Assembly: GCA_964525675.1 (NCBI GenBank)
Contig: CAZGJW010000001.1
Span: 40,467 to 104,466 of the forward strand
Length of the DNA stretch: 64,000 nt
DNA from: an uncultured Spirochaetota bacterium
Lineage (GTDB): Bacteria; Spirochaetota; B62-G9; DRHN01
Direction of reading: 5' to 3'
The notes below the pieces were generated by a model. That model was not told the origin of the DNA. It saw only the letters and a list, made by a program, of their open reading frames with translations, and ran no database searches. This document shows, piece by piece, positions 9,350 through 48,778 of the stretch. A program made the position numbers and the translations under genes. Each line of letters starts with the position of its first letter. The first letter of the stretch is position 1.

Positions 9350-10042
9350 TCATTCTCCTTGCAGCGAATCGATGTCCCCGTCTCGTGCAATAACGACGAG
9401 CACGTCTTCCTTTTCCAGAACTGCTGAAAGTGACGGCTGAAGTATTATCTCATCGATACGCGGATTTCCCTGATCATCAATGGATGTCTTCTTTCTCTTG
9501 ATCGATATAATGTTGATATTGAGCTTTTTCAAAAGGTCTATCTTCGGAACGGGTTTGCCGACCATGCTCTGTGGTACAATAATCTCCGCAAGCGATTGGT
9601 TCTGAGAAATTGGAACCCGCTCAAGAACATCAGGCGATATGAGCCTGCCTGCAAGCTGTCGCCCCTCCTCGATTTCTATAAAGAGCACTTCTGTTGCGCC
9701 CACCTGCTTGAGAACCTGCGCGTGTATATCGGATATGGCCCGCGAAATGATGTAGGGCACGCCGATGTTCTTGAGGATCGCGGTGGTCAGTATACTCGCT
9801 TCCATGTCGTCCCCGATTGCCACAACAGCCACGTCGACCTCCGCCAGCGGAGCACTTTTAATCGACTCCTCGTCGGTGCTATCGATCAGTATGGCCTGGG
9901 TTACCAGATCCTTTACCCGATCGACAAGCTTCTGGTTTACGTCGATTGCAATTACTTTTCCGCCCTTTTCGGAGAGAACCCTGCACAGCTCCAGACCAAA
10001 GGTCCCGATGCCGAATACGGCGAACGCCTTTTCCTTTCGCAT
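9350..10042 (-). CDS. trkA: potassium uptake protein TrkA/KtrA (RCK_N NAD-binding + RCK_C)
   Basis: GIGTFGLEL Rossmann motif. 230 aa. It lies immediately downstream of trkH. Confidence 0.8.
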   Translation of the reverse strand: MRKEKAFAVFGIGTFGLELCRVLSEKGGKVIAIDVNQKLVDRVKDLVTQAILIDSTDEESIKSAPLAEVDVAVVAIGDDMEASILTTAILKNIGVPYIISRAISDIHAQVLKQVGATEVLFIEIEEGRQLAGRLISPDVLERVPISQNQSLAEIIVPQSMVGKPVPKIDLLKKLNINIISIKRKKTSIDDQGNPRIDEIILQPSLSAVLEKEDVLVVIARDGDIDSLQGE

Positions 10043-10070
10043 GATGTGTACACTCCTTATCTGTTTTGTC

Positions 10071-11828
10071 TTATCCTATGGCTATATGTTCCGTGGGATG
10101 GATCACCGGATATTTCTTTGTTCGCTGTGAAAGCGCAATAAAAACCGTTAAAGGTCCTACCCTCCCGATAAACATGAGCAAAATAATGACGAGCTTTCCC
10201 GTATTCGTAAGACTCGAAGTGATACCGGCAGACAGCCCGACCGTGCCGATTGCCGACACCACCTCAAACAGGATATGAACGCTCTCGAACTGCTCAGTCA
10301 TGGTAAGAATGAGGGTGCCTGTAAATATAAGTATCGCATAGAGAAAAAGTATAAAAAAGGCACGGTTAATCAGATCACCCGTAATAGAGTGATTAAAGAT
10401 GGTGATCTCATCGCGATTTTTTATAATCCCGTTTATGTATCCCCCGATTACGGCAATGGTATTGACCTTGACACCACCGGCGGTAGAGCCCGAAGCCCCT
10501 CCGATAAACATAAAAAGTACCATGATGAGATAGGTGAAACGGTTCAGCGATGTGATGTCGATGGTGTTGAAACCGGCAGTTCGCAGTGTAACAGACTGGA
10601 AAAAAGCGGCCAGGTACTGGGTTTTCATGTTCAGGGGGAGTATGCTATTACCATGCTCAAAGGCGTAGATTATGAGCATGCCGGATACAATGAGTATACA
10701 ACTTACGGTGAGTACGGCCTTTGAGTTGAGCGTGAGACTGGCTCGTCTCTTCTCCCTGTAGCCGAAGAGAAGGTGAAGCCGGTCTCCGAACAGCCTATAT
10801 ACGTTCTGCAGAACGCTGAAACTAAACCCACCCAGAATAATGAGTGCAGCAATGGTGCCGTTGACGAGATAATTGTTCTTGAAGGAAACCAGATTATCAG
10901 AAAAGAGAGCAAAACCGGCATTACAGAAAGCCGATACCGAATGAAAGAGCGAAACGAATAACGATTCCCTGTTGAATCCGAAAATCCACGAGAAGGCAAT
11001 TATGAGCAGCAGGAATCCGATAAACTCGATGATCAGGGTGGAGCTTATAATGCTGCGCAGGGAGCCATGCAGGGATGTTGCGTCCTTCTCATCCAGAACG
11101 TACGATGCGATGAGCGTACTCTCGAGCGAAAGCTTTCTCCTGAACAGGAACATCATAAAGTATGAAAGAACCATGATGCCGAGCCCGCCGATCTGTATGA
11201 GCAGAAGAATCACCGTCTTTCCGGTAATGGAAAATCTGGTAGCCGTATCAACGACAATCAATCCCGTTACGCATACTGCCGATGTGGCGGTGAAAAAAGA
11301 ATCGATGAAGCCGAGCCTTGTTCTGTCGGCTGTCGCGTATGGCAACATGAGCAATAGCGTGCCCACGATAATGACCGACATGAAACTGAACAGCACTGCC
11401 TGTGCCGGATGTGTAGCTACTCGCCTGAGCAGGGTATTGATGCTGCGAATTCTCCCCCCGATTTTCACCATGATAAAAATATTACGAAGGATGATCACAT
11501 ATTTTCCCATTGAGGCGAGATCACGTGCCTTCATTATATAACCAGTATATTTGCTGAACAGGAAGAGAAGTAGAAATACACCGAGAAAGACTACTTCCGG
11601 GATATGCTGCTGAAAATAATCGATTTTTTGTTGGGCGCGCACGATCCCGCTTACAATTTCAAATATGAACAGGAGCAGTATGACATAATCGATCGCGTTT
11701 GTGAGGTATCCAGCCATGGTTGATTTGAGCCGACTGAACTCGATGAACAGTGAGATGACTCCCAGCAGGAGCACCACGGCAACGATCACGTTTGATTTTT
11801 CACGTTTTTTCATCCATGCACTATCCAC
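10071..11828 (-). CDS. trkH: TrkH/KtrB family potassium transporter; the start is uncertain and an N-terminal extension of about 130 aa is possible
   Basis: Repeated M1PM2 units carrying the GLGIM selectivity-filter-like motif, and SAVCVTGL near the TrkH core start. The ORF is about 100 aa longer than typical TrkH proteins. Confidence 0.8.
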   Translation of the reverse strand: MDSAWMKKREKSNVIVAVVLLLGVISLFIEFSRLKSTMAGYLTNAIDYVILLLFIFEIVSGIVRAQQKIDYFQQHIPEVVFLGVFLLLFLFSKYTGYIMKARDLASMGKYVIILRNIFIMVKIGGRIRSINTLLRRVATHPAQAVLFSFMSVIIVGTLLLMLPYATADRTRLGFIDSFFTATSAVCVTGLIVVDTATRFSITGKTVILLLIQIGGLGIMVLSYFMMFLFRRKLSLESTLIASYVLDEKDATSLHGSLRSIISSTLIIEFIGFLLLIIAFSWIFGFNRESLFVSLFHSVSAFCNAGFALFSDNLVSFKNNYLVNGTIAALIILGGFSFSVLQNVYRLFGDRLHLLFGYREKRRASLTLNSKAVLTVSCILIVSGMLIIYAFEHGNSILPLNMKTQYLAAFFQSVTLRTAGFNTIDITSLNRFTYLIMVLFMFIGGASGSTAGGVKVNTIAVIGGYINGIIKNRDEITIFNHSITGDLINRAFFILFLYAILIFTGTLILTMTEQFESVHILFEVVSAIGTVGLSAGITSSLTNTGKLVIILLMFIGRVGPLTVFIALSQRTKKYPVIHPTEHIAIG

Positions 11829-12308
11829 ATCGGACAGAAATTTTCAATCCTTGTTCGATTTATTGAATATATATGTTCTTTTCAGTGCTTCAATATAATA
11901 TATTGTGCCCGCATAGAAAAATTCAAAAAAGAACGGTATCGGGCTATCAGTCTGTTGCATCGTCTGCAAAGATCAACAAGTGTGGCAGAACAGAAAGGTA
12001 TTTCACTGCTGGAAGAATATGCTCTAAAATCAGATGCTTCAGAGCACATGATTGATGAGGTTCAAAATATACTCGAACTCATGACCCACAGAGACCGGAC
12101 TGCTTTTGCCAGGCGAGCACGTATCCTCCTGGGAAACCTCAACAGATACGCACATGGGTTCGATGTCTCTGATTGCTTCAGTACTGCTCTTAATGATGAC
12201 AGGCTGCTCCGACTCGACAGGTTCTGCTTCCTCTCCGTTTCCTGCATCGTATGGAACGTGACCGGAACGCCATGAGCAAAAAAGATGATAGATTGAATCC
12301 CCGGGATT

Positions 12309-15080: not shown

Positions 15081-16142
15081 TTACGGTTCGTATCCCAGAC
15101 CTGGCCGATCTCCCGCGTAAAGCACTCCGTCTCTCAGAATGAGAGATCCTTTCGTTGGGTCTCCCTGGAGTCCCATGAATCCATCCAGATCTGCATAGAG
15201 CACATTTGACCGCGCAAGGGCAAAGTGGAGGCCGGCGGCTATTGCGAGCTCACACTCATCCATACAGCCAACCATCACCTCGAGGCCGGCCGATCGAGCC
15301 ACGGCGTTTATCATAAGTGCTTCATAGATTCCACCGGCTTTCATGATCTTGATGTTCACCATATCAACGAGCTCTCCGCGAGCGAGGCGGAATGCATCCC
15401 TGAGCGACATGATGCTCTCGTCCGCCATAATGGGAATAGCCGCCTCATGCGTCACAGCCCCAAGCAGGGGAAGCTCATCCCTGGGTGTCGGCTGCTCTAA
15501 AAGTTCGATGCGGGCGCATTCTGTTTTGTGTATGAACTGCATTGCCTGTTCCTTTGAATAACCCTGGTTGGCATCAAACCTGAGCTCCAGTTCATCGCCT
15601 GCCTTTTTCCGCACCCGCAGGACACGCTCGATATCCTCTTCCACGTTCAGGCCGCCCTTTAGCTTGACCGCTGTAAACCCACTTCTCATGTATGAGAGTA
15701 CCCGCTCAATGGTTCTGTCAACCGGGAGTATACCCACGGTGATGCTGGTTTTTATGCACGGCCGGTATCCACCGAGCAGTTTCCAGAGCGGAAGGCCGCA
15801 TACTTTTCCCAGTATGTCGTGCAGGGCCATATCGACACACGCTTCTGATGAAGGATGTCCTTTGAGATTAGGCCTGAGCTCCTCAAGCAGCAGAGCTATG
15901 CGCAGCGGATCCCGTCCACGGAGCGCAGAATCAATCGTATCACACACATCCTGCAGAACCGTATCTGCCGTTTCTCCTGTAACTGCCCGGTCAGGAGCAG
16001 CGCAGCCGTAGCCAACGATACCCCCATCCGTTCCCACGCGCAGAAACACGTTCACCGCTGTTTCAACCCGTTCATACGCAATAGAGTAGGGTTCCCTGAG
16101 GGAGAAAGAAAGTGGATATGCCTCGATTGTTCGTATCTTCAT
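15081..16142 (-). CDS. enolase-superfamily dipeptide epimerase (L-Ala-D/L-Glu epimerase-like, MR/MLE subgroup)
   Basis: The capping domain plus the KxK / D / E / D metal-ligand arrangement expected for a muconate-lactonizing-enzyme-type barrel. 353 aa. Confidence 0.8.
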   Translation of the reverse strand: MKIRTIEAYPLSFSLREPYSIAYERVETAVNVFLRVGTDGGIVGYGCAAPDRAVTGETADTVLQDVCDTIDSALRGRDPLRIALLLEELRPNLKGHPSSEACVDMALHDILGKVCGLPLWKLLGGYRPCIKTSITVGILPVDRTIERVLSYMRSGFTAVKLKGGLNVEEDIERVLRVRKKAGDELELRFDANQGYSKEQAMQFIHKTECARIELLEQPTPRDELPLLGAVTHEAAIPIMADESIMSLRDAFRLARGELVDMVNIKIMKAGGIYEALMINAVARSAGLEVMVGCMDECELAIAAGLHFALARSNVLYADLDGFMGLQGDPTKGSLILRDGVLYAGDRPGLGYEP

Positions 16143-16144
16143 TT

Positions 16145-16966
16145 TCAGTACCGTTTCTCGTGTATCTCATCCATGTTGAGATGCCTTAAATCATCCACGA
16201 AACGAACAAGATGTTCAATCATGATATGCCACAGCCGTTCACCCTTTTCACGAGTTGCTTTCGTTGGGTCTCCCAGAATTCCACTCCGTGAAATCTTCTC
16301 GGTCTGCGTATACCACTCCACGCTCCTGCTCGTACTGAAGTTGAGATACCTGCTCGAAAATCTGGGTATTGATTTCTTTGCCTTTTTCATATCGACCAAT
16401 TCGGGTCTTACTGCCAGAGCAGTGCTCGTCTCCATTTCTCCGGCATGAGCGTCGTTTGGGGTTTCTATGATTTTCTGCACATCCACGTCACTTGTCTCAC
16501 CGGTATCGACACAGGCGAAGATGCGGGCTTCACGGTTTATCATCTGGGCTGCATTCTGCAACGCAGGACCATTACCTCCATGACCATTGATGATCACCAG
16601 CTTACGTATGCCGTGACGCGCTATACTTATACCTATCTCATAGACCAGCCTGGTGAGGGTCTCATTACTGAGGCTGATAGTACCGCTGAACCCCATGTGA
16701 TGGTAAGATACACCATAGGAGACCAACGGCAGTACGATGGGTTTCGGTTCGCTCATCGCCTCTGCCACGGATCTGGCAAGATACTCTGCATCGAATGCAT
16801 CGGTATCCAGGGGCAGATGTGGGCCGTGCTGCTCGGTGGAGCCTACGGGAAGAAGCGCAATATCGATATCGGAGAAGCGCTGTTTTGCCTCAACCCAGGT
16901 AAGTTCCCCAAGTAAGATACCAGATTTCCCTTTCTTCACATCCATCGACATTCTCCTTGTTATCAT
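16145..16966 (-). CDS. creatininase-family amidohydrolase
   Basis: GSTEQHGPHLPLDTD metal-binding signature of the creatinine amidohydrolase family. Confidence 0.8.
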   Translation of the reverse strand: MITRRMSMDVKKGKSGILLGELTWVEAKQRFSDIDIALLPVGSTEQHGPHLPLDTDAFDAEYLARSVAEAMSEPKPIVLPLVSYGVSYHHMGFSGTISLSNETLTRLVYEIGISIARHGIRKLVIINGHGGNGPALQNAAQMINREARIFACVDTGETSDVDVQKIIETPNDAHAGEMETSTALAVRPELVDMKKAKKSIPRFSSRYLNFSTSRSVEWYTQTEKISRSGILGDPTKATREKGERLWHIMIEHLVRFVDDLRHLNMDEIHEKRY

Positions 16967-19536
16967 ACCGAAAGTGGATCAAAACTCCGCCACTGACCAT
17001 CTACTATTTTAAGCGCTCCCCGGGCATGCTGGAGATAGATGCGAAACAGCGGTCCTCGTATTTTGGGAGGTATGGTTTCAAAAGGTGAGTGCTCAGCATC
17101 GAAACGAAGGCTCTCCACCTCAGGATGAGGCGTTGCCCCTTCCCCTCCAGAAAGCATCCCCTTCTCACTGAGTAGATAGAGAACATGATCCATAACAGAA
17201 GACTCCTGATGCAGGCGCATGCGGGGCAATTCTCCAATACACACTGCCACCTGTTCTTCCGTATAACCGCAGAAGGACGGATCGGCGTCCAATGCTTTTA
17301 ACATCCCTACAGTGCGGTGACACTTTTCGCACTTCCCGCATGGTCGAGTCCGGTCCTTTTCTATCGATGCAGCATGACAGGATATTTGATTGCGCTGCAG
17401 TTGAGGGTACCGCTCCACAAGTATCTTTTGTACCAGCAGTTCCGAAAGTGACCGAAGGATGGAAAACTGCTCGATACCATATCCCTTGGCGTTGAAGTAG
17501 CCGCTCAGAGCAAGGTCGAAGTATCGACTCTGGTCGTAAAGTCCGTCGAAATACGGTATTCCTTGCAAGAAGCAGCGTCGCGTGGTATCGTATTCGTTAC
17601 CAATAAGCAGTAGTCCGATGCCGCGTTTCCTGAGCACGGGAAGGGCACCGAACAGAAACACGGCCACAGTCCAGAGCCGTATCGGGTAGTCATCAGCCCG
17701 TATATCAAGAAAATTCTGTCTGATAAAGGGAAAATGCTCGAGCATCCAGGAAAAAACGCGATCGGAGTTGGTCCATACCCTGGCGGTTCGCGGAATCCCG
17801 GACCTGAATGCACGGTAGCTGTTCAGTGCCGTGTACCAGTGTCTTCCTGATTCGTTGATAAACACCGGATGAGCCTCTATACAGGTCTCATCCATCAGCC
17901 CGAAGCTCAGGAGGCTCTCCTTTCCCCCGCTGGTCAGTACGGCACAGCGGTTTCGATCGGTCTCCCAGCACTGTAACGATTCGGGCTGTAGATCGGGAAA
18001 TAAAAGCTCAGCCTGCACATAGGATGGCCTTTTCTCGATCTTCATGGGATGAAATCCGGCTATAAGAAACGGATTGTGCTCGAGAAACTTCTTCACATAT
18101 ATTTCCCGCGCCGTATTCCGGAGCATGTATCTGAGAAATCGTCGATCGAACTCATCGTATACACCATGCAGAACAATGCTCCGGCAGAAAAGACCGTAGT
18201 TGAGCGCAATCTGCACAGCTATCATAGACGCCAGGTTTGTTGATGCCATGTCTTCAGGCTGAAACATCTCCTCTTCAAAGCGGTATATTAGATTGATGCT
18301 GTCGACCGCACCTCCCCTGTGAATCGAATACGGTGCTATAACGCGGTCCCGCTCTACACGAATTGGCCCCACCTCAAGCGAGTCGATGATAAGCAGGCTA
18401 CTGGTTTCTTCGCCCCAGGATTTTCGTTCCTTCTGCTTCTTACGGTACTTCCTGTTCACCTCGGGTTTGTATCGAACGAGATACGCTGTAATTTCATCCG
18501 CTCCCGAGATGAGCACGTCAGCAACAGGAAGGCTCGTCTCTTTTGAAATACGACTGCAAACGCGCCCTATTTCTTCCGGTTTTAGACCTTCATGGTTCAG
18601 GGTGACAGCACCGACAGGTCTTCCCGAAACGATTTCCAGTGCCTTTATCTGCAGGCCGAGCGGATGTAGCGTATATCCGGGAAACCCGTCGTACTCCTTC
18701 CGCGAAGGCGCATGCTGAAGCACGATAACATCGGGGCGTCCTGCTGTAAGTATCTCCATTCCGCCCGGGTAGGCCGGATTCAGGAAGCTTCCCTGCCCTT
18801 CAATCAAAATCACATCTGGGTGGTTGTCGTGCCAGGCCTGCCAGACCGCATTCTCGATCTCGCCAGTCACGAAATCAACGATAAGGGAATCGATGATAAT
18901 GCTGTAGTGCGCCCCCTGCATCCATGCCGTCTGACCCGTACCGATAAGCTCGACGCTGAGCCCCGCCTCCCGGAATGCATCGTACAGAATCCAGGCTGTG
19001 GTTCTCTTACCGAGCGCAGAATCCGTACCGAGTACCGCAATCTTCAGTGATTTGACCTCCTTGATTTTCCCGCTGAAGAAGTGCATTTCATCCCTGGGAG
19101 GAAGCTTCCGTATATCGCGTAATTTGACGTTGTGCCGAGCAGCCAGTTCTGCAAAATCCGGATCTTCGGAGAGTATATCGTGCAGGCCGCTATCCACATG
19201 GAGCCCGAGCCTGATTGCCTCTTTCACATCCTTCCGTGCCTTTTCACTCAGCCTCCCTCCGTCCGGTGCAAGGCCCACAACGAAATGAGTGGCCTGCGTA
19301 CCAGCTTCCTCAGCAGCCTGTACAGCCGCAGTCAGGTCTTCATACACTGGGATACCCGTAGCCCTGCCGTCGAGCACCTCTCCCGCATCCATTCCCGCAT
19401 AACGGCTGTCGATTACGGAAAGTGCACGGTAGCGTTCCGTTCGGCGTACGAGGCCATGGGCTGTCTTGCCGTTTGTTGTCGCAAATGCTCCCTCGCAGTA
19501 CACGATTGCGTTGCCATCGGGCCAGTGATTCATCAT
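16963..19536 (-). CDS. fusion protein: DUF1611-like N-terminal half + PP-loop ATP-pyrophosphatase domain (SGGKES) with a QueC-like C-terminal Cys cluster
   Basis: 857 aa with no internal stop. Residues ~1-360 resemble DUF1611 proteins (Rossmann-like N-terminal domain and P-loop-like C-terminal domain). Further downstream are CAVLTSGGKESLLSFGL (a PP-loop) and CHAASIEKDRTRPCGKCEKCH. It overlaps both flanking genes by 4 nt. Confidence 0.6.
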   Translation of the reverse strand: MMNHWPDGNAIVYCEGAFATTNGKTAHGLVRRTERYRALSVIDSRYAGMDAGEVLDGRATGIPVYEDLTAAVQAAEEAGTQATHFVVGLAPDGGRLSEKARKDVKEAIRLGLHVDSGLHDILSEDPDFAELAARHNVKLRDIRKLPPRDEMHFFSGKIKEVKSLKIAVLGTDSALGKRTTAWILYDAFREAGLSVELIGTGQTAWMQGAHYSIIIDSLIVDFVTGEIENAVWQAWHDNHPDVILIEGQGSFLNPAYPGGMEILTAGRPDVIVLQHAPSRKEYDGFPGYTLHPLGLQIKALEIVSGRPVGAVTLNHEGLKPEEIGRVCSRISKETSLPVADVLISGADEITAYLVRYKPEVNRKYRKKQKERKSWGEETSSLLIIDSLEVGPIRVERDRVIAPYSIHRGGAVDSINLIYRFEEEMFQPEDMASTNLASMIAVQIALNYGLFCRSIVLHGVYDEFDRRFLRYMLRNTAREIYVKKFLEHNPFLIAGFHPMKIEKRPSYVQAELLFPDLQPESLQCWETDRNRCAVLTSGGKESLLSFGLMDETCIEAHPVFINESGRHWYTALNSYRAFRSGIPRTARVWTNSDRVFSWMLEHFPFIRQNFLDIRADDYPIRLWTVAVFLFGALPVLRKRGIGLLLIGNEYDTTRRCFLQGIPYFDGLYDQSRYFDLALSGYFNAKGYGIEQFSILRSLSELLVQKILVERYPQLQRNQISCHAASIEKDRTRPCGKCEKCHRTVGMLKALDADPSFCGYTEEQVAVCIGELPRMRLHQESSVMDHVLYLLSEKGMLSGGEGATPHPEVESLRFDAEHSPFETIPPKIRGPLFRIYLQHARGALKIVDGQWRSFDPLSV

Positions 19537-20642
19537 CTCCTCCCCGTGAGAATCACAACGTATCTGCCGGGCTCGAGGCTCCGCTCCCGATACCCATTCG
19601 CGAGAACGGCCAGTCCCGCGGTGGAGGCAGGAAGTACACTGAGCCCCTCCTGTTCGCGGACCATTCGCGAAAAGGACATCATACTTCTATCTGAGACATA
19701 CCCGGCAAGCCCACCGGTTCTCCGAATGGCTTCCAGTGCAAGGTCACCGTCGATGGAGTGCCAGTTGATGAGCGGTTCGTTGATCTTTGTTTCCCGTATG
19801 TCCTCAGCAGAAAGATCCTCACAGGATGGCAGGTTTTTCAGATACGCCTGAACGATCGGATTTTTCCGGTACGAGGAACCGGCAATAAGTTTTGGAACAT
19901 GGGATGTTTTTCCACGTCTGTACAGGCTGACAAAACCTTTGTACATGCCTGCAAGGGTTGTCCCGTTAGACACCGGAACCGCAACGGCAGTCGGGGCGTC
20001 ACGGAGCTCATCGTATATCTCATAGGCGATCTCGCCGTACGCACTGAGCTGTAGAGCGGTATTTTCACCCCCGGGATTGGCGTCGTAGATCTCTTTTTCC
20101 GCTGCGTACTCCTGTGAGAGCTGTACCGTCTGTTCATAGTCAATCGGGGTTCGAATGATCTCGGCGCCGAATTTCCTGATCTCATCGATACGTTTGGTCT
20201 GATAGTTTTCAGGTATGAATATGAAACACTTGAGCCCTGCCATGTAAGATGCAAGTGCGATAGCCACACCGTAATTGCCGCAGGTAGCAACGGTCACTGC
20301 GTCGTATCCGCGCCTGAGTGCATCCATGCCCTGGGCAAAGGCAATACGGTCCTTCTGTGTGCCTGTCGGGTTACTCCCCTCGAACTTCATATAGATCTGT
20401 CGAAGGCCTATCTCCCGTTCACTGTTCCGGGCACGGGTCATGGTTGTGTCGCCGACCTGCGACTCAAATATATCCTCGTATGCCTCCAGGCGTTCTTCGA
20501 TGGTGAACTCAGGAGAAGATGCAATCTGGATCTGCCTTTCCGTATCGATGAGGATGTCAGGCGAGTCGGGCGTGGCACCATCGATGAGAGTGAAATTTCT
20601 GTTCGATGAAGGTGCGCTGTTCTGGTCTTCATATTCATTCAT
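19533..20642 (-). CDS. fold-type II PLP-dependent enzyme (threonine synthase / cysteine synthase-like)
   Basis: KFEGSNPTGTQKDRIA matches the PLP-lysine motif (xxSFKDR / GSVKDR) of the tryptophan-synthase-beta superfamily. 369 aa. Confidence 0.7.
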   Translation of the reverse strand: MNEYEDQNSAPSSNRNFTLIDGATPDSPDILIDTERQIQIASSPEFTIEERLEAYEDIFESQVGDTTMTRARNSEREIGLRQIYMKFEGSNPTGTQKDRIAFAQGMDALRRGYDAVTVATCGNYGVAIALASYMAGLKCFIFIPENYQTKRIDEIRKFGAEIIRTPIDYEQTVQLSQEYAAEKEIYDANPGGENTALQLSAYGEIAYEIYDELRDAPTAVAVPVSNGTTLAGMYKGFVSLYRRGKTSHVPKLIAGSSYRKNPIVQAYLKNLPSCEDLSAEDIRETKINEPLINWHSIDGDLALEAIRRTGGLAGYVSDRSMMSFSRMVREQEGLSVLPASTAGLAVLANGYRERSLEPGRYVVILTGRR

Positions 20643-20931: not shown

Positions 20932-21900
20932 TTATTCATGAACTGGTGAAAACCAGACAGCCCTATGATGCAGCCGCACGCTTCCCCGCACCCACTGCCA
21001 TGCCTTCTCAGCTAAACGGCGCGTCAGAAGCAGAATAAGGTCGTCAGGTACACCTGCTGCCCGAAAGGATTGCGACGAGACGTCACACTGGTCGTTCATA
21101 TAATCAATCACTACGAATTTATTACTACGTTTGCTCATGGCTATTTCACATGAAAACCATTCGATACGGACAATATCGGCGATATCAGACGCAATTCCGA
21201 CCATCGACATCAGCCTGTGCTGCTCGAATTCTCGGATCATCGCATGCCGGTACACACCGCTTTGCGGATTCCACCAGCAGGGAAACAGCTCCCCGAACAG
21301 GTAAAAGATCCTGAACCATGCAACCACCCCCTCCAATACCTCCGGCTCCACAAACTCCTGCAGGAGGAAATGGTCGCCCGGATTGAAATTCCGCGCTTCG
21401 GCAATCTCCCGCAGAGTCAACCGATCCCGCACGATCTTCACTCCACGCTGCCCGTATCCTGTAGCCGGCTTGATGACAATTGGAAGTCCCAGTTTCTCTT
21501 TCTCTTCAAAGGTAAGCCTTCGCGAAGGCTCCCAGTTCCGTATCACCACGGTATTGGGTACTGGAATGCCGGCATTGATCAGGTTAAAATGTGTGATTGC
21601 TTTGTCCGCTGAAAACCGAACCTGATCTACATCGGCGACAATTCGGGTTCCATGGTCTTTGAGAAGGTAGGCAAATTTCGTGAATGGATGCTCCAGGTTT
21701 TCCGTGTCGGAAGCAAGGTCCAGGTAGAAACGGATTTTAAGCCTGCTTTCCAGGACATGAGACGCGACGTGCTCAAGCTTCGATTCATTTACTTTGAGAA
21801 AGCGAAGCCCTCGTGCTTCACACTCCCTGCGCAGAGCATCGATGAAGAGAACATCACCATTTTCATCAATCCACCCTATGCCGAAGTCGTATACGTCCAT
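20932..21900 (-). CDS. ATP-grasp family ligase (RimK-like fold)
   Basis: LPIVIKPATGYGQRGVKIV resembles the ATP-grasp phosphate-binding loop. 322 aa. Confidence 0.6.
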   Translation of the reverse strand: MDVYDFGIGWIDENGDVLFIDALRRECEARGLRFLKVNESKLEHVASHVLESRLKIRFYLDLASDTENLEHPFTKFAYLLKDHGTRIVADVDQVRFSADKAITHFNLINAGIPVPNTVVIRNWEPSRRLTFEEKEKLGLPIVIKPATGYGQRGVKIVRDRLTLREIAEARNFNPGDHFLLQEFVEPEVLEGVVAWFRIFYLFGELFPCWWNPQSGVYRHAMIREFEQHRLMSMVGIASDIADIVRIEWFSCEIAMSKRSNKFVVIDYMNDQCDVSSQSFRAAGVPDDLILLLTRRLAEKAWQWVRGSVRLHHRAVWFSPVHE

Positions 21901-21964: not shown

Positions 21965-22900
21965 TCATTGTACCCTCTTAAAAATAAAACTCAAGAGCTT
22001 GTACACGAGTTTCGCGGCAAGAAAATCGGGTGCTTTGTTTCGTGACGGGCAGAGCTCTACTACATCGAATCCCACCACCCGCCTGCTTTCAGTCACATTT
22101 CTCAACAGTCTGATCACCTCGTACCAGCCAAGGCCCCCCGGCTCGGGCGTTCCGGTGGAGGGCATGATTCCCGAATCAAAGACATCGAGATCGATAGTGA
22201 TATAGACGGGATCGATAAGCAGAGAGGAAACCTGTTCGAGGTATCGGTCGGAGACAGAACAATCGTGCGCAAAGAAAACACGCTCTTTCTTGAGACGAGA
22301 ATCCCCGGTCGTACCACGGGCACCCGCTTCGCTTGTACCACGGGCACCCGCTTCGCTTGTACCACGGGCACTCCCTTCGGTCGTATCCATGCTTCGTATA
22401 CCCACACTAACAACGGTATCGATGATTTCGCCGACTCTGGACATAACACAGGCATGATTGTAGCGGCTTCCCTGATACAAATCACGACGGTCGGAATGGG
22501 CATCTAGGTGCAGAACACTCAACGATCTGAAGTGCTCTGCATGGGCTGCAATGGTCCCAATAGATACCGAGTGCTCTCCTCCAAGTACCACCGTGAATTT
22601 ACCGTCGGCGAGATACCGAGCAACACGAGCCCTTACCTTTTCAACCATGGTTTCGACTTTCCACGCTCTAATCGGACGGGCCGTACACAGACCCTGCATG
22701 TACACCTGGGAATCGGTCTCAATATCGTAGAGCTCAAGGTTGCGAGATGCTTCCAATATGGCACGAGGTCCATGCCTGGAACCCTTCATCCAGGTACTCG
22801 TGCGGTCAAATGGTACGGACAACAGCACAACTCTTGAAGTATCGTATGTCGAGTACCTGAGTTCGAGACCGTAGAAGTTGCGAGGTGTCTTATCTTTCAT
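21965..22900 (-). CDS. speB: agmatinase / ureohydrolase (arginase family) carrying an in-frame low-complexity insertion
   Basis: GGEHSVS, DAHSDRRD and ITIDLDVFD Mn-binding motifs. The context is pdaD and a deoxyhypusine-synthase-like gene. The insertion EGSARGTSEAGARGTSEAGARGTTGDSR is encoded by a 24-bp tandem repeat. Confidence 0.8.
   Translation of the reverse strand: MKDKTPRNFYGLELRYSTYDTSRVVLLSVPFDRTSTWMKGSRHGPRAILEASRNLELYDIETDSQVYMQGLCTARPIRAWKVETMVEKVRARVARYLADGKFTVVLGGEHSVSIGTIAAHAEHFRSLSVLHLDAHSDRRDLYQGSRYNHACVMSRVGEIIDTVVSVGIRSMDTTEGSARGTSEAGARGTSEAGARGTTGDSRLKKERVFFAHDCSVSDRYLEQVSSLLIDPVYITIDLDVFDSGIMPSTGTPEPGGLGWYEVIRLLRNVTESRRVVGFDVVELCPSRNKAPDFLAAKLVYKLLSFIFKRVQ
22309..22380. 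repeat. 24-bp tandem repeat x3 (gtaccacgggcacccgcttcgctt, third unit diverged), in frame inside the agmatinase CDS
   Basis: Direct reading of the sequence: two perfect units and one imperfect unit. Confidence 0.85.
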
Positions 22901-22901
22901 A

Positions 22902-23456
22902 TTACTCCATGATAAATACCGCAGCAGCCATCACAGTGGTCCAGAGCCCGTCCTTATTTCCCTCAGCCGATTGACAGATATTTCTTGTCTTGAAAATATG
23001 GCCGCTTGCCCGGTACACATTCTTTCGCTCATCCCAGGCCTGGTCCGGGTCGAAAGGTATCCCGAGGGTAGTTGCCAGCATAGTTGCAGCCAGGTCTTCC
23101 GCGTAATTGCCCGAAATACGGGCGGTTTCGCCGAAGCTGTGGTGCTCGGCTATGTACCCGTAGTGCTCCCTCTCCTTGGGAACAGCTATACCGATAGCCG
23201 CAGAAACGAGACGATTTGGCTCTCTCGTCCCGTTTCTTGCCAAGACGCAATAGGTGAGCTGGCCGGCCTTTAACATCGCCAGCCCTTCTTCCTTGGTGAT
23301 TATTGCACACATTGGAGGCAAAATGCTCGAAACATAGACCAGGTTACACTTTTCGATGCACGCCTGTCTCAACGCCACTTCGAAAGAAGAGAGCTTGTCG
23401 CGGTGCATACCGACACCCTTGGTAAGGAAGAGTTTTTTCGGAATGAGCCCCATCAT
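22902..23456 (-). CDS. pdaD: pyruvoyl-dependent arginine decarboxylase
   Basis: N-terminal IPKKLFLTKGVGMHRDKLSSFEVALRQA...VYVSSILPP is a near-consensus PdaD start, including the self-cleavage serine region. 184 aa. Confidence 0.85.
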   Translation of the reverse strand: MMGLIPKKLFLTKGVGMHRDKLSSFEVALRQACIEKCNLVYVSSILPPMCAIITKEEGLAMLKAGQLTYCVLARNGTREPNRLVSAAIGIAVPKEREHYGYIAEHHSFGETARISGNYAEDLAATMLATTLGIPFDPDQAWDERKNVYRASGHIFKTRNICQSAEGNKDGLWTTVMAAAVFIME

Positions 23457-24484
23457 TTCTTCTCTCCGTCAAGAAATGCATTGAACTCCTTCTGGTTCCG
23501 ATTTCTCCACGAGCCATTGTGGTATGCAAAACTCGCAATGAGTGGCACCGCAATGGTGGCCTCGGAAAAAACGATCTGCTCAGCACCTTCGTCCACCTTA
23601 CCCCAGGAGTGCGCTTCCTTCAGGGTCGAACCGGACAACCCCCCGTCCCGTTCATCGGCAACGGTGATCTGCACGGCATATTTGTGCATGGATACCTCTT
23701 CACCAAGGATGTCCGCCGCAACCGTGACATCCTGGGCAAAGTTCTTGGGTACCCCGCCCCCGATCATGAACAGTCCCGTGGCCTTTGAAGCGACCTTTAT
23801 ACTTGTCAGCTCTAGGAAATCCTTCACCGAGTCTATCGTCACATGGGCCTTCTTTTTCCGCTCCCACTGATGATAGACCAGCCCGAATCCTGCGCTGGAA
23901 TCGGAGAAGGCGGGTACGAAGATGGGTACTCCCATCTGATGGGTAGCCCACATGACCGACCCCTTGCCTATTTTCTTTTTCACCAGGTATTTTGCCATAA
24001 TCCGGATGAACTCCCGCGAAGAGTACGGCCGTGCCGGGAGCCCGTCAGCGATCTCCTTTACGGTCATATCGCAGACGCGAAGCTCCTCCTCATCGATGTA
24101 GGTATCGTATATTCGGTCGATCTGTTGGCTCATAAGCCTGTCGTCGTCCGCCAACGGTGTGCCCTGATAGTGTTTGAAGCCCAGGGCCTCGAAGAAATCC
24201 TGATCCACTATGATTGCACCGGTAGAGACAATCACATCCACCATGTTGAACGAGACCAGGTCGACCACGATCTTTTTCAGTCCGGCGCTGAAGAGCGATC
24301 CCGCAAGGCAGAGGATAATGGTACAGTCATCGTCGGCGAGCATTGCGTCATATATACGTGCCGCCCGCGCCAGGTTTCTCGCCTGAAACGCCGTCTTCTC
24401 GAACTGCTCGATGATGGGGACTGCATTGAAGGTTTTTATATTTATGTGCTGCACTTCGTGCTTTAAATATTCCTTTTTGTCCAT
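23453..24484 (-). CDS. deoxyhypusine synthase-like protein (homospermidine-synthase-type polyamine aminobutyl transferase)
   Basis: DHS-family length and motifs. I moved the start to the ATG at 24484 (MDKKEYLKHE), which has AAGGAGGTG 7 nt upstream. The 38 codons before it in the ORF are Cys/Arg-rich and look non-coding. Confidence 0.8.
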   Translation of the reverse strand: MDKKEYLKHEVQHINIKTFNAVPIIEQFEKTAFQARNLARAARIYDAMLADDDCTIILCLAGSLFSAGLKKIVVDLVSFNMVDVIVSTGAIIVDQDFFEALGFKHYQGTPLADDDRLMSQQIDRIYDTYIDEEELRVCDMTVKEIADGLPARPYSSREFIRIMAKYLVKKKIGKGSVMWATHQMGVPIFVPAFSDSSAGFGLVYHQWERKKKAHVTIDSVKDFLELTSIKVASKATGLFMIGGGVPKNFAQDVTVAADILGEEVSMHKYAVQITVADERDGGLSGSTLKEAHSWGKVDEGAEQIVFSEATIAVPLIASFAYHNGSWRNRNQKEFNAFLDGEKK

Positions 24485-24918
24485 TTTTCTACACCTCCTT
24501 CTATTTATGCATGTTAAATATACCATGCATTCAGGTACAAATCCATACGTGTATCTATCGGGACACCCTCCCTTCGCACAGCATTTACAAAAACCCACTA
24601 TATTATGCTCACCGTGGAGGGATGGTCAATAAAATTCAAGTACAATATGAGGCATTAATCAAGAAAATTGCGGATATCACAACGGTTTCCACTTGTAATT
24701 ATAAGGATTATAATTATAATCAGTATAGGGGGTGGCAGATCATTCATAATACTTTTCTACCTGTTGGAGTTGGTACCAATAAGTAATACAGGGAAACTTG
24801 TTGACTTCATCGTCTGAACATGTTTATCATAACGCTGTGTTTCCACCAAATAGATATTCACTTCCATGGGCTCTGCATAACTTTATTATCGAGAGAGTAC
24901 GCTACAAGGAATCCCTCA

Positions 24919-27453
24919 ATGAGCAAAACAACATCTAAGCAACAAACCAGACCATCACTATCCATGGCGGCATTCAAGGGAACAGACCCGGCATGTCTTG
25001 AGGATTCTTTCAGGTATCACCTCGAGTACTCCCTGGGTAAGGACGAGTACAGCGCTACGCAACGCGACATCTTCAAGAGCCTTGCCATGACAGTGCGGGA
25101 CCTCCTGTTCGAGCGCTGGACCGAAACTCAGCAGACCTACTATCATAAGGCGGCCAAGAGGGTATACTACCTGTCCCTGGAGTTTTTGATCGGCAGGATG
25201 CTCAGCGACGCACTCATAAACCTGGGGATATACGAAAACATGCGAAAAGCCATGACCGTACTCGGCTGTGATATCGAGTCTCTTAAGGAAATCGAGTTTG
25301 ATGCAGGCCTCGGAAACGGCGGCCTGGGACGTCTTGCCGCCTGTTTCATGGACTCAATGGCCACACTCGGCATTCCCGCATACGGGTACGGTATCCGTTA
25401 CGAGTATGGTATCTTCTTCCAGAGAATACAAAACGGGTATCAAGTGGAGACGCCCGACAACTGGCTGAGGTACGGAAATCCCTGGGAGATCGAGCGTCCC
25501 GAGCACCTCTATCCCGTGAAGTTCTATGGGAGGGTGCACCAGTCCACCGATGACCATGGAAACTTTCACTGTGGCTGGGTGGACACTCAGGATGTCCTGG
25601 CCATGGCCTACGATACGCCCGTGCCCGGATACCGGAACAACACGGTGAACAACCTCCGGCTCTGGTCCGCCAAATCAACCCGGGAGTTTAATCTCGATTA
25701 CTTCAACCACGGAGATTACGAACGGGCTGTCGCCGACAAAGCCCATTCGGAAACCATCTCCATGGTCCTGTACCCCAACGACAACATGTTCGAGGGGAGG
25801 GAGCTCAGGCTGAAGCAGGAGTACTTCTTTGTGTCTGCGACCCTGCAGGACATTATAAGGCGTTTCATGAAGACCAATCCAAAAGGGTTCCAGCGATTTC
25901 CCGAAGAGGTCGCCATACAGCTCAACGACACGCACCCGGCCATTGCGATACCTGAGCTCATACGGTTACTCGTGGACGAGGAGCGGGTAGGCTGGGACGA
26001 GGCCTGGGATATAACAGTCAGGAGCTTTGGATACACAAATCACACGATTATGGGAGAAGCGCTGGAGAAATGGCCTGTGAGTCTCATGGGGCGCGTTCTT
26101 CCCCGGCACCTGCAGATCATCTACGAGATCAATCGGCGTTTCCTCGATCATGTACTGTCGTTGCACATCTCCGACAACGACCTCAAGATTCAAAACCTCT
26201 CCCTTATTGAGGAGGGGGCCGAAAAGAGGGTGCGAATGGCCAGCCTCGCGATCATGGGCAGCCATTCTGTGAACGGTGTGTCAGAGATCCATACCGGGCT
26301 GCTCAAAAGTGAGCTTTTCAGGGAATTTTATGAAATCTGGCCTGAACGGTTCAAAAATATTACCAACGGAATCACGCAGCGCCGATGGCTGAAGGCCTGC
26401 AACCCGGAGCTTTCGAAATTAATCACCAGTCACATTGGTGAGGGGTGGATCACTGATCTGTCCCAGCTGGAAAAGCTGGTTCCCCTCGCCGATGATGATG
26501 GGTTTCAGAAATCGTGGCTGGAGGTCAAACTGAAAAACAAGAAGAGGCTGGCAGAGTTTATCCGGAACCATGTAACGGTCAATCCATCTGCACTCTTCGA
26601 CTGCCAGGTGAAGAGATTCCACGAGTACAAGCGTCAGCTTCTCAATGCCCTGCACGTCGTATACCTCTACAACCGTATAAGGACGGGCAGTAACCCGATG
26701 TCCGTGCCCCGAATGTTTATTTTTGCCGGCAAGGCGGCTCCCGGGTACTGGACGGCCAAGCTCATCATCAAACTGATCAATTCTATCGCCGACAAGGTGA
26801 ATCATGACAAGGATGTAAATGACAGGATGAAGGTCGTGTTCCTCGCCAATTACGATGTCTCACTGGCAGAGCGGATCATCCCGGCCGCAGATCTCTCCGA
26901 GCAGATTTCAACGGCAGGAACCGAAGCTTCGGGGACCAGCAATATGAAGTTTGCCCTGAACGGGGCCTTGACCATCGGGACAATGGATGGTGCCAACGTC
27001 GAAATACTGCAGGAGGTCGGCAAGGAGAACTTTTTCACCTTCGGATTGACCACCGAGCAGATAGGATCCTTACGAATATCAGGGTACAGTCCCCGGGAGT
27101 ACTACGAGGGCAATCCGCATCTGAAAGGGGTGATCGATCTCATATCGGACGGATATTTTTCACCCGACGAACCGTCGCTCTTCAAACCCCTTGTTGACTC
27201 GCTGCTGAACGGGGGCGATCCCTATCTTCTACTGGCGGATTTTGCAGACTACCTTCGATGCCAGGAAGAGGTGATGAAAACCTACAGGGACAGGAAAAAA
27301 TGGGCACGGATGTCCATTTTGAACGTGGCACACATGGGCACGTTTTCAAGCGACCGCACGATTCAAGAGTATGCACGGGAGATCTGGGATGTCAAACCGG
27401 TTCTTGTCGAAGCTCCCCCCAAGCGTCTGTGTGATGACGGATCTGTCACCTGA
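24919..27453 (+). CDS. glgP: glycogen/maltodextrin phosphorylase
   Basis: EASGTSNMKFALNG, the pyridoxal-phosphate lysine motif of GT35 phosphorylases. Full-length architecture of about 845 aa. I moved the start to the ATG at 24919 (MSKTTSKQQ). Confidence 0.9.
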   Translation: MSKTTSKQQTRPSLSMAAFKGTDPACLEDSFRYHLEYSLGKDEYSATQRDIFKSLAMTVRDLLFERWTETQQTYYHKAAKRVYYLSLEFLIGRMLSDALINLGIYENMRKAMTVLGCDIESLKEIEFDAGLGNGGLGRLAACFMDSMATLGIPAYGYGIRYEYGIFFQRIQNGYQVETPDNWLRYGNPWEIERPEHLYPVKFYGRVHQSTDDHGNFHCGWVDTQDVLAMAYDTPVPGYRNNTVNNLRLWSAKSTREFNLDYFNHGDYERAVADKAHSETISMVLYPNDNMFEGRELRLKQEYFFVSATLQDIIRRFMKTNPKGFQRFPEEVAIQLNDTHPAIAIPELIRLLVDEERVGWDEAWDITVRSFGYTNHTIMGEALEKWPVSLMGRVLPRHLQIIYEINRRFLDHVLSLHISDNDLKIQNLSLIEEGAEKRVRMASLAIMGSHSVNGVSEIHTGLLKSELFREFYEIWPERFKNITNGITQRRWLKACNPELSKLITSHIGEGWITDLSQLEKLVPLADDDGFQKSWLEVKLKNKKRLAEFIRNHVTVNPSALFDCQVKRFHEYKRQLLNALHVVYLYNRIRTGSNPMSVPRMFIFAGKAAPGYWTAKLIIKLINSIADKVNHDKDVNDRMKVVFLANYDVSLAERIIPAADLSEQISTAGTEASGTSNMKFALNGALTIGTMDGANVEILQEVGKENFFTFGLTTEQIGSLRISGYSPREYYEGNPHLKGVIDLISDGYFSPDEPSLFKPLVDSLLNGGDPYLLLADFADYLRCQEEVMKTYRDRKKWARMSILNVAHMGTFSSDRTIQEYAREIWDVKPVLVEAPPKRLCDDGSVT

Positions 27454-42892: not shown

Positions 42893-42993
42893 GATCATCC
42901 TGAATGTAATCGTGAGCACCCGTGGGGAAACAACAGGAACAGACCGCAGCCAATAGCTGTGATATATGATATGGAGAGGAAGGTGGTGTAAAG

Positions 42994-44445: not shown

Positions 44446-44468
44446 ATTTTTATTCAAAGGCATGGTAC

Positions 44469-48773: not shown

Positions 48774-48778
48774 GAAGT

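Follow-up and report, generated by a model that had tools for sequence, protein, structure and literature searches.

Organization of the four-gene block

The window analysed here is a 64,000-nucleotide stretch of a contig from an uncultured Spirochaetota bacterium. Four co-directional open reading frames lie on its minus strand at 20642-19533, 19536-16963, 16966-16145 and 16142-15081, bearing out the shared orientation reported in a preliminary description of the locus, and together they encode five activities within ~5.5 kb. Gene 1 (19533..20642, 369 aa) encodes a fold-type II PLP enzyme resembling threonine synthase. Gene 2 encodes an 857-aa fusion protein, of which the N-terminal half (aa 1-355, 18472..19536) belongs to DUF1611 by PF17396 and PF07755 and the C-terminal half (aa 356-857, 16963..18471) is a QueC-like PP-loop ATP pyrophosphatase by its structure model. 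Gene 3 (16145..16945, 266 aa when counted from the likely start codon at 16945) encodes a creatininase-family metal amidohydrolase (PF02633), and gene 4 (15081..16142, 353 aa) encodes an enolase-superfamily dipeptide epimerase (MR_MLE_N and MR_MLE_C). Profile matches to PALP, DUF1611, Creatininase and MR_MLE upheld all of the domain calls made earlier.

The genes had been described as joined by two 4-nt overlaps and a 2-nt gap. The gap (16143-16144) is present, as is the overlap at 19533-19536 with its ATGATG sequence, but the overlap at 16963-16966 is probably a start-codon artefact, arising only with the longest gene 3 reading frame (start 16966). An alternative ATG at 16945 is preceded by AAGGAG 7 nt upstream, and the gene 3 counterpart in the closest relatives is 266 aa long, which points to a probable 17-nt gap between genes 2 and 3 rather than an overlap; the genes are tightly packed even so. 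Promoter and terminator scans returned counts no higher than the shuffled expectation.

Conservation and phylogenetic spread

Synteny was counted in the 59 related loci whose flanking DNA was long enough, the wider locus set comprising 80. The PALP, DUF1611, PP-loop, creatininase and epimerase genes occurred in the same order and on the same strand within 6.5 kb in 53 of the 59 loci, and a further two held all five activities, but with insertions. Cassette loci came from at least 570 species-level genomes of more than 10 phyla, with carriers in the Spirochaetota, Acidobacteriota, Gemmatimonadota, Ignavibacteria, Desulfobacterales, Zixibacteria, Calditrichota, KSB1, Planctomycetota, Krumholzibacteria and other groups. 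The carriers were mostly sediment heterotrophs, with freshwater, aquifer and soil genomes also among them, and at least one cultured organism, strain NaphS2, has the cassette. Identity was 52-70%, and the median pairwise identity was 64-68%. The cassette has probably spread by horizontal transfer among sediment and soil bacteria.

Gene fusions differed between lineages. In most loci (62 of 77) the creatininase is the C-terminal domain of the PP-loop protein. Most other phyla encode DUF1611 separately, and its fusion to the PP-loop domain, as in the window, was found in five loci, all from Spirochaetota. These alternative fusions link the three middle activities and, together with the cross-phylum synteny, support the single functional unit that had been proposed. 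Distant variants keep PALP, DUF1611 and PP-loop but have a GNAT or a DLH hydrolase in place of the last two genes. A few genomes are without DUF1611 or the epimerase (loci L051 and L009), suggesting that not every step is obligatory. An adjacency not conserved in related genomes would have spoken against the unit proposed in the preliminary description; the neighbourhood comparison gave the opposite result, a strongly conserved adjacency. The block is thus confirmed as a real operon.

Its combination of genes had been said to match no characterised pathway, in agreement with which the NCBIfam equivalog cut-offs for DgcN, DgcA, MftE, creatininase, Ala-Glu epimerase and MurL were all missed. Literature searches on DUF1611, on creatininase with epimerase and threonine synthase, on QueC/PP-loop with creatininase, and on MurL with PP-loop yielded no account of the cassette.

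The cassette proteins and their characterised relatives

Gene 1 matched PF00291 (PALP) at 189 bits, and the codon of its Schiff-base lysine, Lys97, lies at 20352-20354. It shares with ThrC the fold-II PLP fold; its best solved relatives are the threonine synthases 2zsj and 1uim (~1e-25), and it passed the NCBIfam model PRK06381 'threonine synthase' (416 bits, cut-off 266). However, it fell below the cut-off of TIGR00260 for thrC (87 bits versus 167) and also failed four other ThrC models. R160 of the Thermus threonine synthase is the phosphate-binding arginine for O-phosphohomoserine. A glutamine of gene 1 aligns with this residue in two independent pairwise alignments, which at ~25% identity are suggestive only, and glutamine at the equivalent position is at least 95% conserved among 63 gene 1 orthologs. 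A further difference from ThrC is that the PLP gene heads the cassette, standing first in 71 of the 80 loci. The enzyme probably does not make threonine from O-phosphohomoserine.

The DUF1611_N and DUF1611_C domains (90 bits with PF17396 and 206 bits with PF07755) cover aa 45-349 of the gene 2 product. This half consists of a Rossmann-like N domain and a P-loop C domain; the Walker-A motif GTDSALGKRT occupies aa 170-179 (19000-19029), and the PDB relatives are 2g0t (143 bits), 2obn and 7xrj. The earlier view that the neighbourhood of DUF1611 and an enolase-type epimerase is functionally unassigned is outdated, given one characterised pair, the only one of its kind: DgcN, a DUF1611 member, is a D-glutamate N-acetyltransferase (EC 2.3.1.312), and DgcA is an N-acetyl-D-glutamate racemase (EC 5.1.1.25). 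As in the cassette, one operon encodes both a DUF1611 protein and an enolase racemase of the MLE subgroup. The amino group is acylated and the alpha-carbon is then inverted, in a catabolic route that also spends acetyl-CoA. Orthology of the cassette to DgcN/DgcA was excluded, however, with scores far under the cut-offs both for gene 2 (NF041892, 145 bits versus 480) and for the epimerase (NF042940, 145 bits versus 400). The cassette epimerase is nearer than DgcA to true dipeptide epimerases and keeps their DxD motif, and the Dgc pathway has no counterparts of the PLP, PP-loop and creatininase activities.

The C-terminal 500 aa of the fusion protein were unannotated, and the structure model upheld the earlier call of a PP-loop domain. 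The domain has the features of the QueC type, namely the PP-loop fold, an SGGxDS-type motif (SGGKES at 17914-17931) and a C-terminal four-Cys site (17320-17382); an additional motif, NESGRHW, lies at 17836-17856. Its top structural matches were QatC, QueC and Cap9, which are carboxylate-adenylating amide formers sharing this fold. However, identity to them is 13-19%, the PP-loop protein exceeds QueC more than twofold in size, and QueC sequence models gave no match at E <= 0.01 (NCBIfam) or E <= 10 (Pfam). Neither queD, queE, queF nor other deazapurine genes were among the recurrent neighbours of the cassette. The Cys motif looks like the zinc site of QueC, with no sign of sulfur chemistry.

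Among characterised enzymes, MurL alone has a sequence profile that the PP-loop family matches, and the match is very weak: with NF041275 (cut-off 700), the protein of the window scored 14 bits and its relatives at most 38 bits. MurL, which uses ATP and releases AMP, acts on an N-acylated C-terminal Glu by adenylating its alpha-carboxylate, and it epimerises in one direction only, L to D. The cassette family differs in being ~500 aa long with N- and C-terminal domains of its own, in being usually fused to creatininase, and in having neither a MurD2 partner nor a cell-wall context; no Mur-ligase family was found among the recurrent neighbours. The P0250 group, the best carrier of MurL similarity, is located in a phage-like contig. 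A search seeded with P0250 returned only six proteins, and MurL was not one of them.

Gene 3 matched PF02633 (Creatininase) at 255 bits, and five of the six metal and catalytic residues of creatininase align (E34, H36, D45, H120, H178), with a glycine in place of E122; judged by this alignment, the metal site is largely intact. These features are shared with the family that includes creatinine amidohydrolase, MftE and ArfB. In contrast to those enzymes, the cassette hydrolase is usually part of a PP-loop fusion, and gene 3 missed the NCBIfam cut-offs of both MftE (165 bits versus 172) and creatininase (130 versus 235). Mycofactocin, radical-SAM and riboflavin/F420 genes did not adjoin the cassette.

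The best solved relative of the gene 4 product is the L-Ala-D/L-Glu epimerase YkfB of B. subtilis (236 bits). The catalytic lysines (KxK on strand 2 and K on strand 6) and the three Mg ligands D/E/D, which are K160/K162, D191, E219, D244 and K268 in YkfB numbering, all align and are at least 80-95% conserved among 60 orthologs. The orthologs also conserve the DxD motif (ADLDG, aa 317-321), which follows strand 8 and in YkfB structures binds the N-terminal ammonium of the free dipeptide. The cassette epimerase thus keeps the catalytic and metal residues and the DxD motif of YkfB/YcjG, and it likewise keeps a conserved K271 (NIKIMK), a second-shell residue whose role in dipeptide epimerases has been described (10.1101/2022.03.03.481873). 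However, it missed the Ala-Glu epimerase equivalogs NF041118 (222 bits, cut-off 500) and PRK15129 (87 bits, cut-off 343), and the cell-wall recycling partners of YkfB/YcjG (YkfA, YkfC, MpaA) are missing here, except for one S66 enzyme in locus L021. Arg24 of YkfB, which binds the gamma-carboxylate of Glu in Ala-Glu, corresponds to a conserved Glu in the 60 orthologs. This replacement makes Ala-Glu an unlikely substrate.

Genes surrounding the cassette

In the window, polyamine genes precede the cassette and TrkH/TrkA genes follow it; the polyamine genes form a separate module. No transporter, regulator or peptidase (NlpC/P60, M14 or other) recurred among 110 immediate neighbours or in 10-kb flanks. 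Upstream of the PLP gene, Rfam searches found no riboswitch or leader at gathering or E <= 1 thresholds, and the upstream regions of the loci shared no k-mers. A RiPP-type precursor peptide was considered and rejected, with no small open reading frame conserved beyond close relatives.

A putative pathway to a dipeptide-like metabolite with a D-residue

We tentatively propose that the block is a self-contained metabolic operon which acts on an intracellular small molecule and whose ATP-dependent pathway may yield a dipeptide-like metabolite with a D-residue. This reading, the likeliest of those considered, stops short of being probable. Beside the observed folds, motifs, fusions and synteny, we infer the substrates, the order of steps, the biosynthetic direction and the product from family chemistry. 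The threonine-synthase-like PLP enzyme would supply or make an amino-acid building block, which DUF1611 would N-acylate, following the precedent of DgcN. The QueC/MurL-like PP-loop enzyme could then adenylate the carboxylate with ATP and form an amide bond or an activated cyclic intermediate, and the creatininase-family hydrolase, being physically coupled to it, could remove the acyl group or open the cyclic amide. In the resulting dipeptide with a free N-terminus, the enolase-type epimerase would invert the C-terminal residue, giving a dipeptide-like metabolite with a D-configured and probably non-acidic C-terminal residue. This order of steps was built to fit the fusions, and the operon would work without a dedicated transporter or regulator. 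The presence of two energy-consuming activation enzymes favours synthesis or remodelling over simple hydrolysis. Also in favour of the proposal are the carboxylate-adenylating relatives of the PP-loop fold, the weak MurL similarity, the complete catalytic residues and DxD motif of the epimerase, the largely intact creatininase metal site and the N-acetyltransferase precedent within DUF1611. Against it count the catabolic role of DgcN/DgcA, the S66 LD-carboxypeptidase inserted in L021, the genomes that lack DUF1611 or the epimerase, the weakness of the MurL match and the PRK06381 cut-off passed by the PLP enzyme.

For the ~500-aa PP-loop protein itself, it is nearly, if not quite, an even call that it founds an unnamed, widespread enzyme family with kinship to QueC and, more remotely, to MurL. 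Such a family would use ATP to form an amide in an N-acylated amino acid, or to cyclise or epimerise it. Together with fused or neighbouring DUF1611 and creatininase, a dedicated PLP enzyme and a dipeptide epimerase, it would make an undescribed D-residue metabolite common to anaerobic sediment and soil bacteria of more than 10 phyla.

Alternative explanations

The cassette could instead serve the catabolism or salvage of D-amino-acid peptides (from necromass, for example, or as fragments of peptidoglycan stem peptides), an explanation that we regard as unlikely but worth serious attention. The epimerase would convert an L,D- to an L,L-dipeptide, with the creatininase-type enzyme serving as dipeptidase or deacylase. 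A released D-amino acid would be acylated by DUF1611 in the manner of DgcN, and the PLP enzyme would break down or convert a released amino acid. Three parts of the cassette have closest characterised relatives that act on D-Glu or Ala-Glu (YkfB, DgcN/DgcA and MurL), and the carriers are largely sediment heterotrophs. In the Spirochaetes locus L021, an S66 LD-carboxypeptidase, a peptidoglycan-peptide enzyme, is inserted directly upstream of the PLP gene; the ykf operon of B. subtilis similarly has ykfA (S66-type) beside ykfB. However, the conserved Glu in place of the Glu-binding Arg of YkfB, the low DgcN and DgcA scores and the lack of a recurrent peptide transporter, peptidase or regulator in the immediate neighbours and 10-kb flanks all speak against salvage. 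An ATP-consuming PP-loop enzyme has no obvious part in hydrolytic catabolism, and the invariant gene order and very tight sequence conservation are unusual for peripheral catabolic operons.

A rather improbable alternative is ATP-driven, one-way racemisation of the MurL type, providing a D-amino acid for the cell envelope or another use. The PLP enzyme would make an L-amino acid and DUF1611 would N-acylate it; adenylation by the PP-loop enzyme would lead to an oxazolone-like ring that epimerises, and ring opening or deacylation would fall to the creatininase-type cyclic amidohydrolase fused to the PP-loop enzyme. The ATP use, AMP release and L-to-D direction of MurL itself are consistent with this scheme, as are the weak MurL-profile matches in the PP-loop family, the 62 of 77 loci in which the PP-loop is fused to a member of a cyclic-amide hydrolase family, and the position of DUF1611, an acyltransferase-family protein, directly before the PP-loop. 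However, the scheme has no use for the dipeptide epimerase, which is intact and conserved and has its DxD motif, the similarity to MurL is weak, and neither a MurD2-like partner nor a cell-wall gene recurs nearby. The oxazolone chemistry would itself be conjectural.

Slightly less probable again is that the cassette, together with glycosyltransferases and an ATP-grasp ligase, makes a compatible solute or low-molecular-weight thiol that is glycosylated and derived from an amino acid. These accessory genes had been regarded as an upstream extension of the block. A RimK/LysX-like ATP-grasp ligase (20932..21900, minus strand; weak PF08443 match, rimK_fam 52 bits) does lie directly upstream at 21900-20932, but both glycosyltransferase-like genes are downstream on the minus strand: a GT4 glycosyltransferase with GT4 Pfam matches (15031-13835) and a 498-aa protein weakly resembling mannosylglucosylglycerate synthase (13805-12309, 50 bits). 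In Spirochaetota, the GT4 and GT-like genes remain close to the cassette, in three different arrangements, and the ATP-grasp gene is upstream in three genomes. The TrkH/TrkA and polyamine genes flanking the cassette of the window, a K+ channel and a GH130 gene near that of L012, and YitT/DUF2179 membrane proteins in ~10 of ~55 downstream positions (10 of 110 immediate neighbours) also count in favour of this idea.

Across the 80 loci, however, the glycosyltransferase pair was found near the cassette in four (L011, L012 with GT4 only, L020 and L021, in differing arrangements) and was missing from 76, while the ATP-grasp gene was found in two, L012 and L021, upstream in both, and was missing from 78. 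All of these loci are in or near Spirochaetota, so that the supposed extension is lineage-specific and the genes are Spirochaetota-only accessories. The Trk genes of the window had no match in the 80 loci, MscS- or SLC12-like genes were sporadic, and YitT/DUF2179 proteins alone recurred; a systematic link to osmotic or ion transport was rejected on these grounds. Freshwater, aquifer and soil genomes are among the carriers. Scores with BshA and MshA were 26-36 bits, and the Cys motif is QueC-zinc-like. The thiol or compatible-solute idea, raised in the preliminary description, thus fails for the conserved core because the glycosyltransferases and ATP-grasp ligase are lineage-specific; it is a possibility for the Spirochaetota lineage only.

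An anti-phage system of the QatC/Cap9 type, or a role in queuosine or deazapurine metabolism, is suggested by the top structural matches QatC, QueC and Cap9 but is highly improbable. PADLOC matched none of the four proteins, QatA/B/D, CD-NTase and queD/queE were not recurrent in the flanks, no QueC HMM matched, and the partners are all small-molecule enzymes. Chance adjacency of housekeeping genes (threonine synthase, creatininase, cell-wall epimerase), to which the automatic names pointing to unrelated pathways might lead, is refuted by the gene fusions and by a gene order that 53 of 59 loci share over more than 10 phyla, and its likelihood is negligible.

Implications

Thousands of cassette proteins stand in databases as 'threonine synthase', 'creatininase family protein', 'NAD-dependent epimerase/dehydratase family' or 'hypothetical'. 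The conserved gene order and the fusions show that these proteins are part of a single pathway, and that most of the labels are probably mistaken. On our best reading, the cassette is a good target for function discovery rather than a new kind of system, and since it is compact, self-contained and present in the cultured strain NaphS2, its reconstitution is realistic. Solving it would give a function to an unnamed PP-loop family, would place MurL-type chemistry, itself poorly understood, in a context, and would extend the logic of DUF1611 and enolase-type enzymes past D-glutamate catabolism. The cassette might also point to a common metabolite of sediment microbiomes that has not yet been described.

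Organization of the operon

The cassette is a block of four minus-strand genes (20642-15081, defined by ORFs and Pfam matches) encoding a fold-type II PLP enzyme (PALP; 20642-19533, 369 aa), a fusion of DUF1611 and a PP-loop domain (19536-16963, 857 aa, with DUF1611_N and DUF1611_C at residues 45-349), a creatininase (16966-16145, 273 aa as the longest ORF), and an epimerase (MR_MLE_N and MR_MLE_C; 16142-15081, 353 aa). Pfam bore out the corresponding domain calls of the preliminary description (as PALP, DUF1611, Creatininase, and MR_MLE), and the ATGATG overlap of genes 1 and 2 (19533-19536) and the 2-nt gap between genes 3 and 4 (16143-16144) reported there were present. The reported 4-nt overlap at 16963-16966 holds with the longest creatininase ORF, but not with the likelier start at 16945. 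Since this in-frame ATG has AAGGAG at the right distance 5' and the creatininase gene of the closest relatives is 266 aa long, the sequence makes a 17-nt gap between genes 2 and 3 more likely than an overlap. An ATP-grasp gene and two glycosyltransferase genes had been placed upstream. By transcription direction this is correct for the ATP-grasp gene (21900-20932, minus strand), but the GT4 gene (15031-13835, minus strand) lies downstream of the block, followed by a gene for a 498-aa GT-like protein (13805-12309, minus strand).

Conservation and spread

The 500-aa PP-loop domain (residues 356-857 of the fusion protein) had more than 3,261 homologs at 90% clustering. Among the 120 matches listed, identity to the window domain was 54-93%, and the domain occurred alone (~500 aa), after DUF1611 (~857 aa), or before a creatininase domain (~770-800 aa). 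With each species represented by a single genome, at least 570 genomes were found to encode it, and the best 80 loci were compared. They include Spirochaetota, Acidobacteriota (Holophagae, Thermoanaerobaculia, Aminicenantes), Gemmatimonadota, Ignavibacteria, Cytophagia, Desulfobacterales, Zixibacteria, Calditrichota, KSB1, Planctomycetota, Krumholzibacteria, and others, with one cultured carrier (strain NaphS2); the locus closest to that of the window, at 93% identity, comes from an uncultured Spirochaetota MAG.

Searches with the window proteins against the 80 loci (tblastn) found the order PALP, DUF1611, PP-loop, creatininase, MR_MLE and the strand kept almost everywhere. The neighborhood check suggested in the preliminary description thus came out in favor of the block: 53 of the 59 loci with sufficient flanking DNA carried the complete co-linear five-part set within 6.5 kb. 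Two further loci had it with insertions, and four lacked one or two parts, with PALP and PP-loop present in all. Fusions of PP-loop with creatininase occurred in 62 loci and of DUF1611 with PP-loop in five, all Spirochaetota, and 10 loci had a stand-alone PP-loop gene. The block is firmly established as one functional unit, and the alternative fusions firmly tie together three of its five activities (DUF1611, PP-loop, creatininase). Pairwise median ortholog identity between phyla was 64-68%, which is unusually high and, at the sequence level, suggests strong constraint and horizontal spread. A PALP protein (P0275) that is 87% identical to that of the window carries an NCBI label assigning it to a MAG of Candidatus Hodarchaeota (Asgard archaeon); mis-binning of a bacterial contig is the probable cause, and recent transfer the alternative.

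Distant PP-loop relatives (24-45% identity) kept the trio PALP, DUF1611, and PP-loop, with a GNAT acetyltransferase or a dienelactone-hydrolase-type enzyme in place of creatininase and epimerase. The GNAT gene follows the trio in locus L091 (1131-5065) and is convergent in L096 (48-2038), and the hydrolase-type gene follows it in L005 (5718-10612).

Predicted activities of the enzymes

All five catalytic domains are clearly intact. Residues 356-857 had no Pfam or NCBIfam match above noise and no solved-structure match by sequence. Their AlphaFold model (25 homologs) was confident (mean pLDDT 88.8, pTM 0.88), and Foldseek ranked QatC, QueC, and Cap9 first, in line with the earlier PP-loop reading of the second half of the fusion. 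The domain carries the motif SGGKES (family consensus SGGKDS) and an invariant C-x12-C-x2-C-x2-C that resembles the zinc site of QueC.

The closest solved structure to the epimerase is B. subtilis YkfB (236 bits). The KxK pair, strand-6 Lys, three metal ligands, Lys271, and DxD motif align and are kept in 60 orthologs. In YkfB, a dipeptide is bound by the DxD motif at its free N-terminal ammonium and by Arg24 at the Glu side chain. Here, a conserved Glu occupies position 24, which, together with the retained DxD motif, argues for a dipeptide substrate other than Ala-Glu. The PLP enzyme is closest to threonine synthase structures (~1e-25), and it passed the NCBIfam model PRK06381 'threonine synthase' and failed TIGR00260. 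Arg160 of Thermus ThrC binds the substrate phosphate; an invariant Gln at this position makes threonine synthase activity doubtful, although the alignment, at ~25% identity, is suggestive only. The creatininase aligns with P. putida creatininase at five of its six metal and catalytic residues and has Gly in place of E122 (motif NGHGGN); its score is just under the MftE cut-off and far under the creatininase cut-off. The DUF1611 domain has a Walker-A motif. Its characterized relative DgcN is a D-glutamate N-acetyltransferase and the partner of the enolase-family racemase DgcA. The DUF1611 domain and the epimerase studied here score far under the DgcN and DgcA cut-offs, respectively.

Gene context

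The cassette is firmly shown to be autonomous in gene context. Clustering of flanking ORFs found no gene beyond the cassette in more than 10 of the 80 loci, and only YitT_membrane/DUF2179 recurred in a Pfam census of 110 immediate neighbors (10 of 110), mostly directly after the epimerase gene in Desulfobacterales. No conserved transporter, peptidase, or regulator was seen in these flanks and neighbors, the upstream regions gave no hit in Rfam and had no motif in common, and no small ORF was conserved. The ATP-grasp gene recurred only in L012 and L021 among the compared loci. In L021 (5533-7495), it is followed by an overlapping S66 LD-carboxypeptidase gene and then by the cassette, PLP gene first; this is the only compared locus with a peptidoglycan-peptide enzyme adjoining the cassette.

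Directly upstream of the window ATP-grasp gene, on the same strand, are abutting or overlapping genes (21965-24598, minus strand) for a deoxyhypusine-synthase-like protein, a pyruvoyl-dependent arginine decarboxylase, and an agmatinase. The first passes the NCBIfam 1,9-bis(guanidino)-5-aza-nonane synthase model (565 bits, cut-off 500). The genes form a compact polyamine module, which suggests that homospermidine is made from agmatine. L012 has this module, but the 93%-identical relative (L001/L011) lacks it. Genes for K+ uptake (TrkH and TrkA, 9350-11828, minus strand) follow the two glycosyltransferase genes and share their strand; the equivalent place in L012 has a K+ channel gene (Ion_trans_2 and TrkA_N/C; 10979-12007). 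Taken with these genes, the glycogen phosphorylase (24820-27453) and the GH130 genes found in L012 and L021 give the impression of an ion/osmotic neighborhood specific to this Spirochaetota lineage.

Further away (41384-49615, plus strand) are three paralogous MTTB-family methyltransferase genes (41384-42892, 42994-44445, 45625-47136) with genes for a corrinoid B12-binding protein (44941-45594), a DUF364/DUF4213 protein, a TrmO-like protein, and DUF1638, which look like a quaternary-amine (betaine-type) methyltransferase system of a Spirochaetota-like genome. A 295-aa ORF (31255-32142, plus strand) with only an E1-E2 ATPase domain tail and Cation_ATPase_C is apparently a truncated P-type ATPase, possibly a pseudogene remnant; an MprF-like lysyl-phosphatidylglycerol synthase gene (32135-34720) begins before it ends.

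Proposed pathway and alternatives

We tentatively propose that the cassette encodes a short pathway acting on an intracellular small molecule, in the order protect, activate, couple, deprotect, epimerize. The PLP enzyme would supply an amino acid, DUF1611 would N-acylate an amino group, and the PP-loop domain would adenylate a carboxylate, followed by coupling to an amine or cyclization. The coupled creatininase-type hydrolase would then take off the acyl group or open the ring, and the free dipeptide so formed would have its C-terminal residue inverted by the epimerase. Such an order would explain why precisely DUF1611, PP-loop, and creatininase are fused, and the epimerase would act last because it needs a free N-terminus.

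Catabolism or salvage of peptides with D-amino acids would fit the closest relatives, which share an Ala-Glu and D-Glu theme, and the S66 enzyme in L021. It is weakened by the Glu24 replacement in the epimerase and the lack of a conserved transporter or peptidase, and it appears less likely than the proposed pathway. MurL, described by its discoverers as having no known domains (PMC5808125, PMC8788868), is the only named family touched by the PP-loop sequence profile, very weakly for the window protein (E 0.0097) and at E 4e-4 for three relatives and 7e-10 for P0250. A MurL-style module for ATP-driven racemization would leave the dipeptide epimerase unexplained, and we consider it improbable. 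The group matching the MurL profile best includes P0399, a 466-aa relative (L097, 2599-3999) on a phage-genome-like contig with many small co-directional unannotated ORFs.

The glycosylated solute or thiol product suggested in the preliminary description is slightly less probable still and could apply to Spirochaetota only. The GT4 and GT-like pair occurred in only four of the 80 loci, all Spirochaetota or close relatives, where GT4 always accompanies the 498-aa protein; the pair is convergent in L020 and ~7 kb off the cassette in L021. The 498-aa protein had no Pfam family above threshold and a weak NCBIfam match to mannosylglucosylglycerate synthase (50 bits, cut-off 640). A defense role (empty PADLOC result and immediate-neighbor census), a queuosine role (the same census), and chance adjacency (five-part synteny) are effectively excluded.

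Each part of the cassette belongs to a known superfamily, and DgcN/DgcA, MurL, and QueC/Cap9 are precedents for its general logic. Neither the five-part combination nor the fusions nor the 500-aa PP-loop family is named in Pfam, NCBIfam (June 2026), or PADLOC, and no description of the cassette was found in the searchable literature, consistent with the earlier statement that no characterized pathway matches the combination. The cassette is a metabolic operon assembled from known enzyme families; it overturns no principle and answers no famous open question. It probably exposes systematic misannotation, and for function discovery it offers a target that is well defined, widespread, and experimentally tractable.
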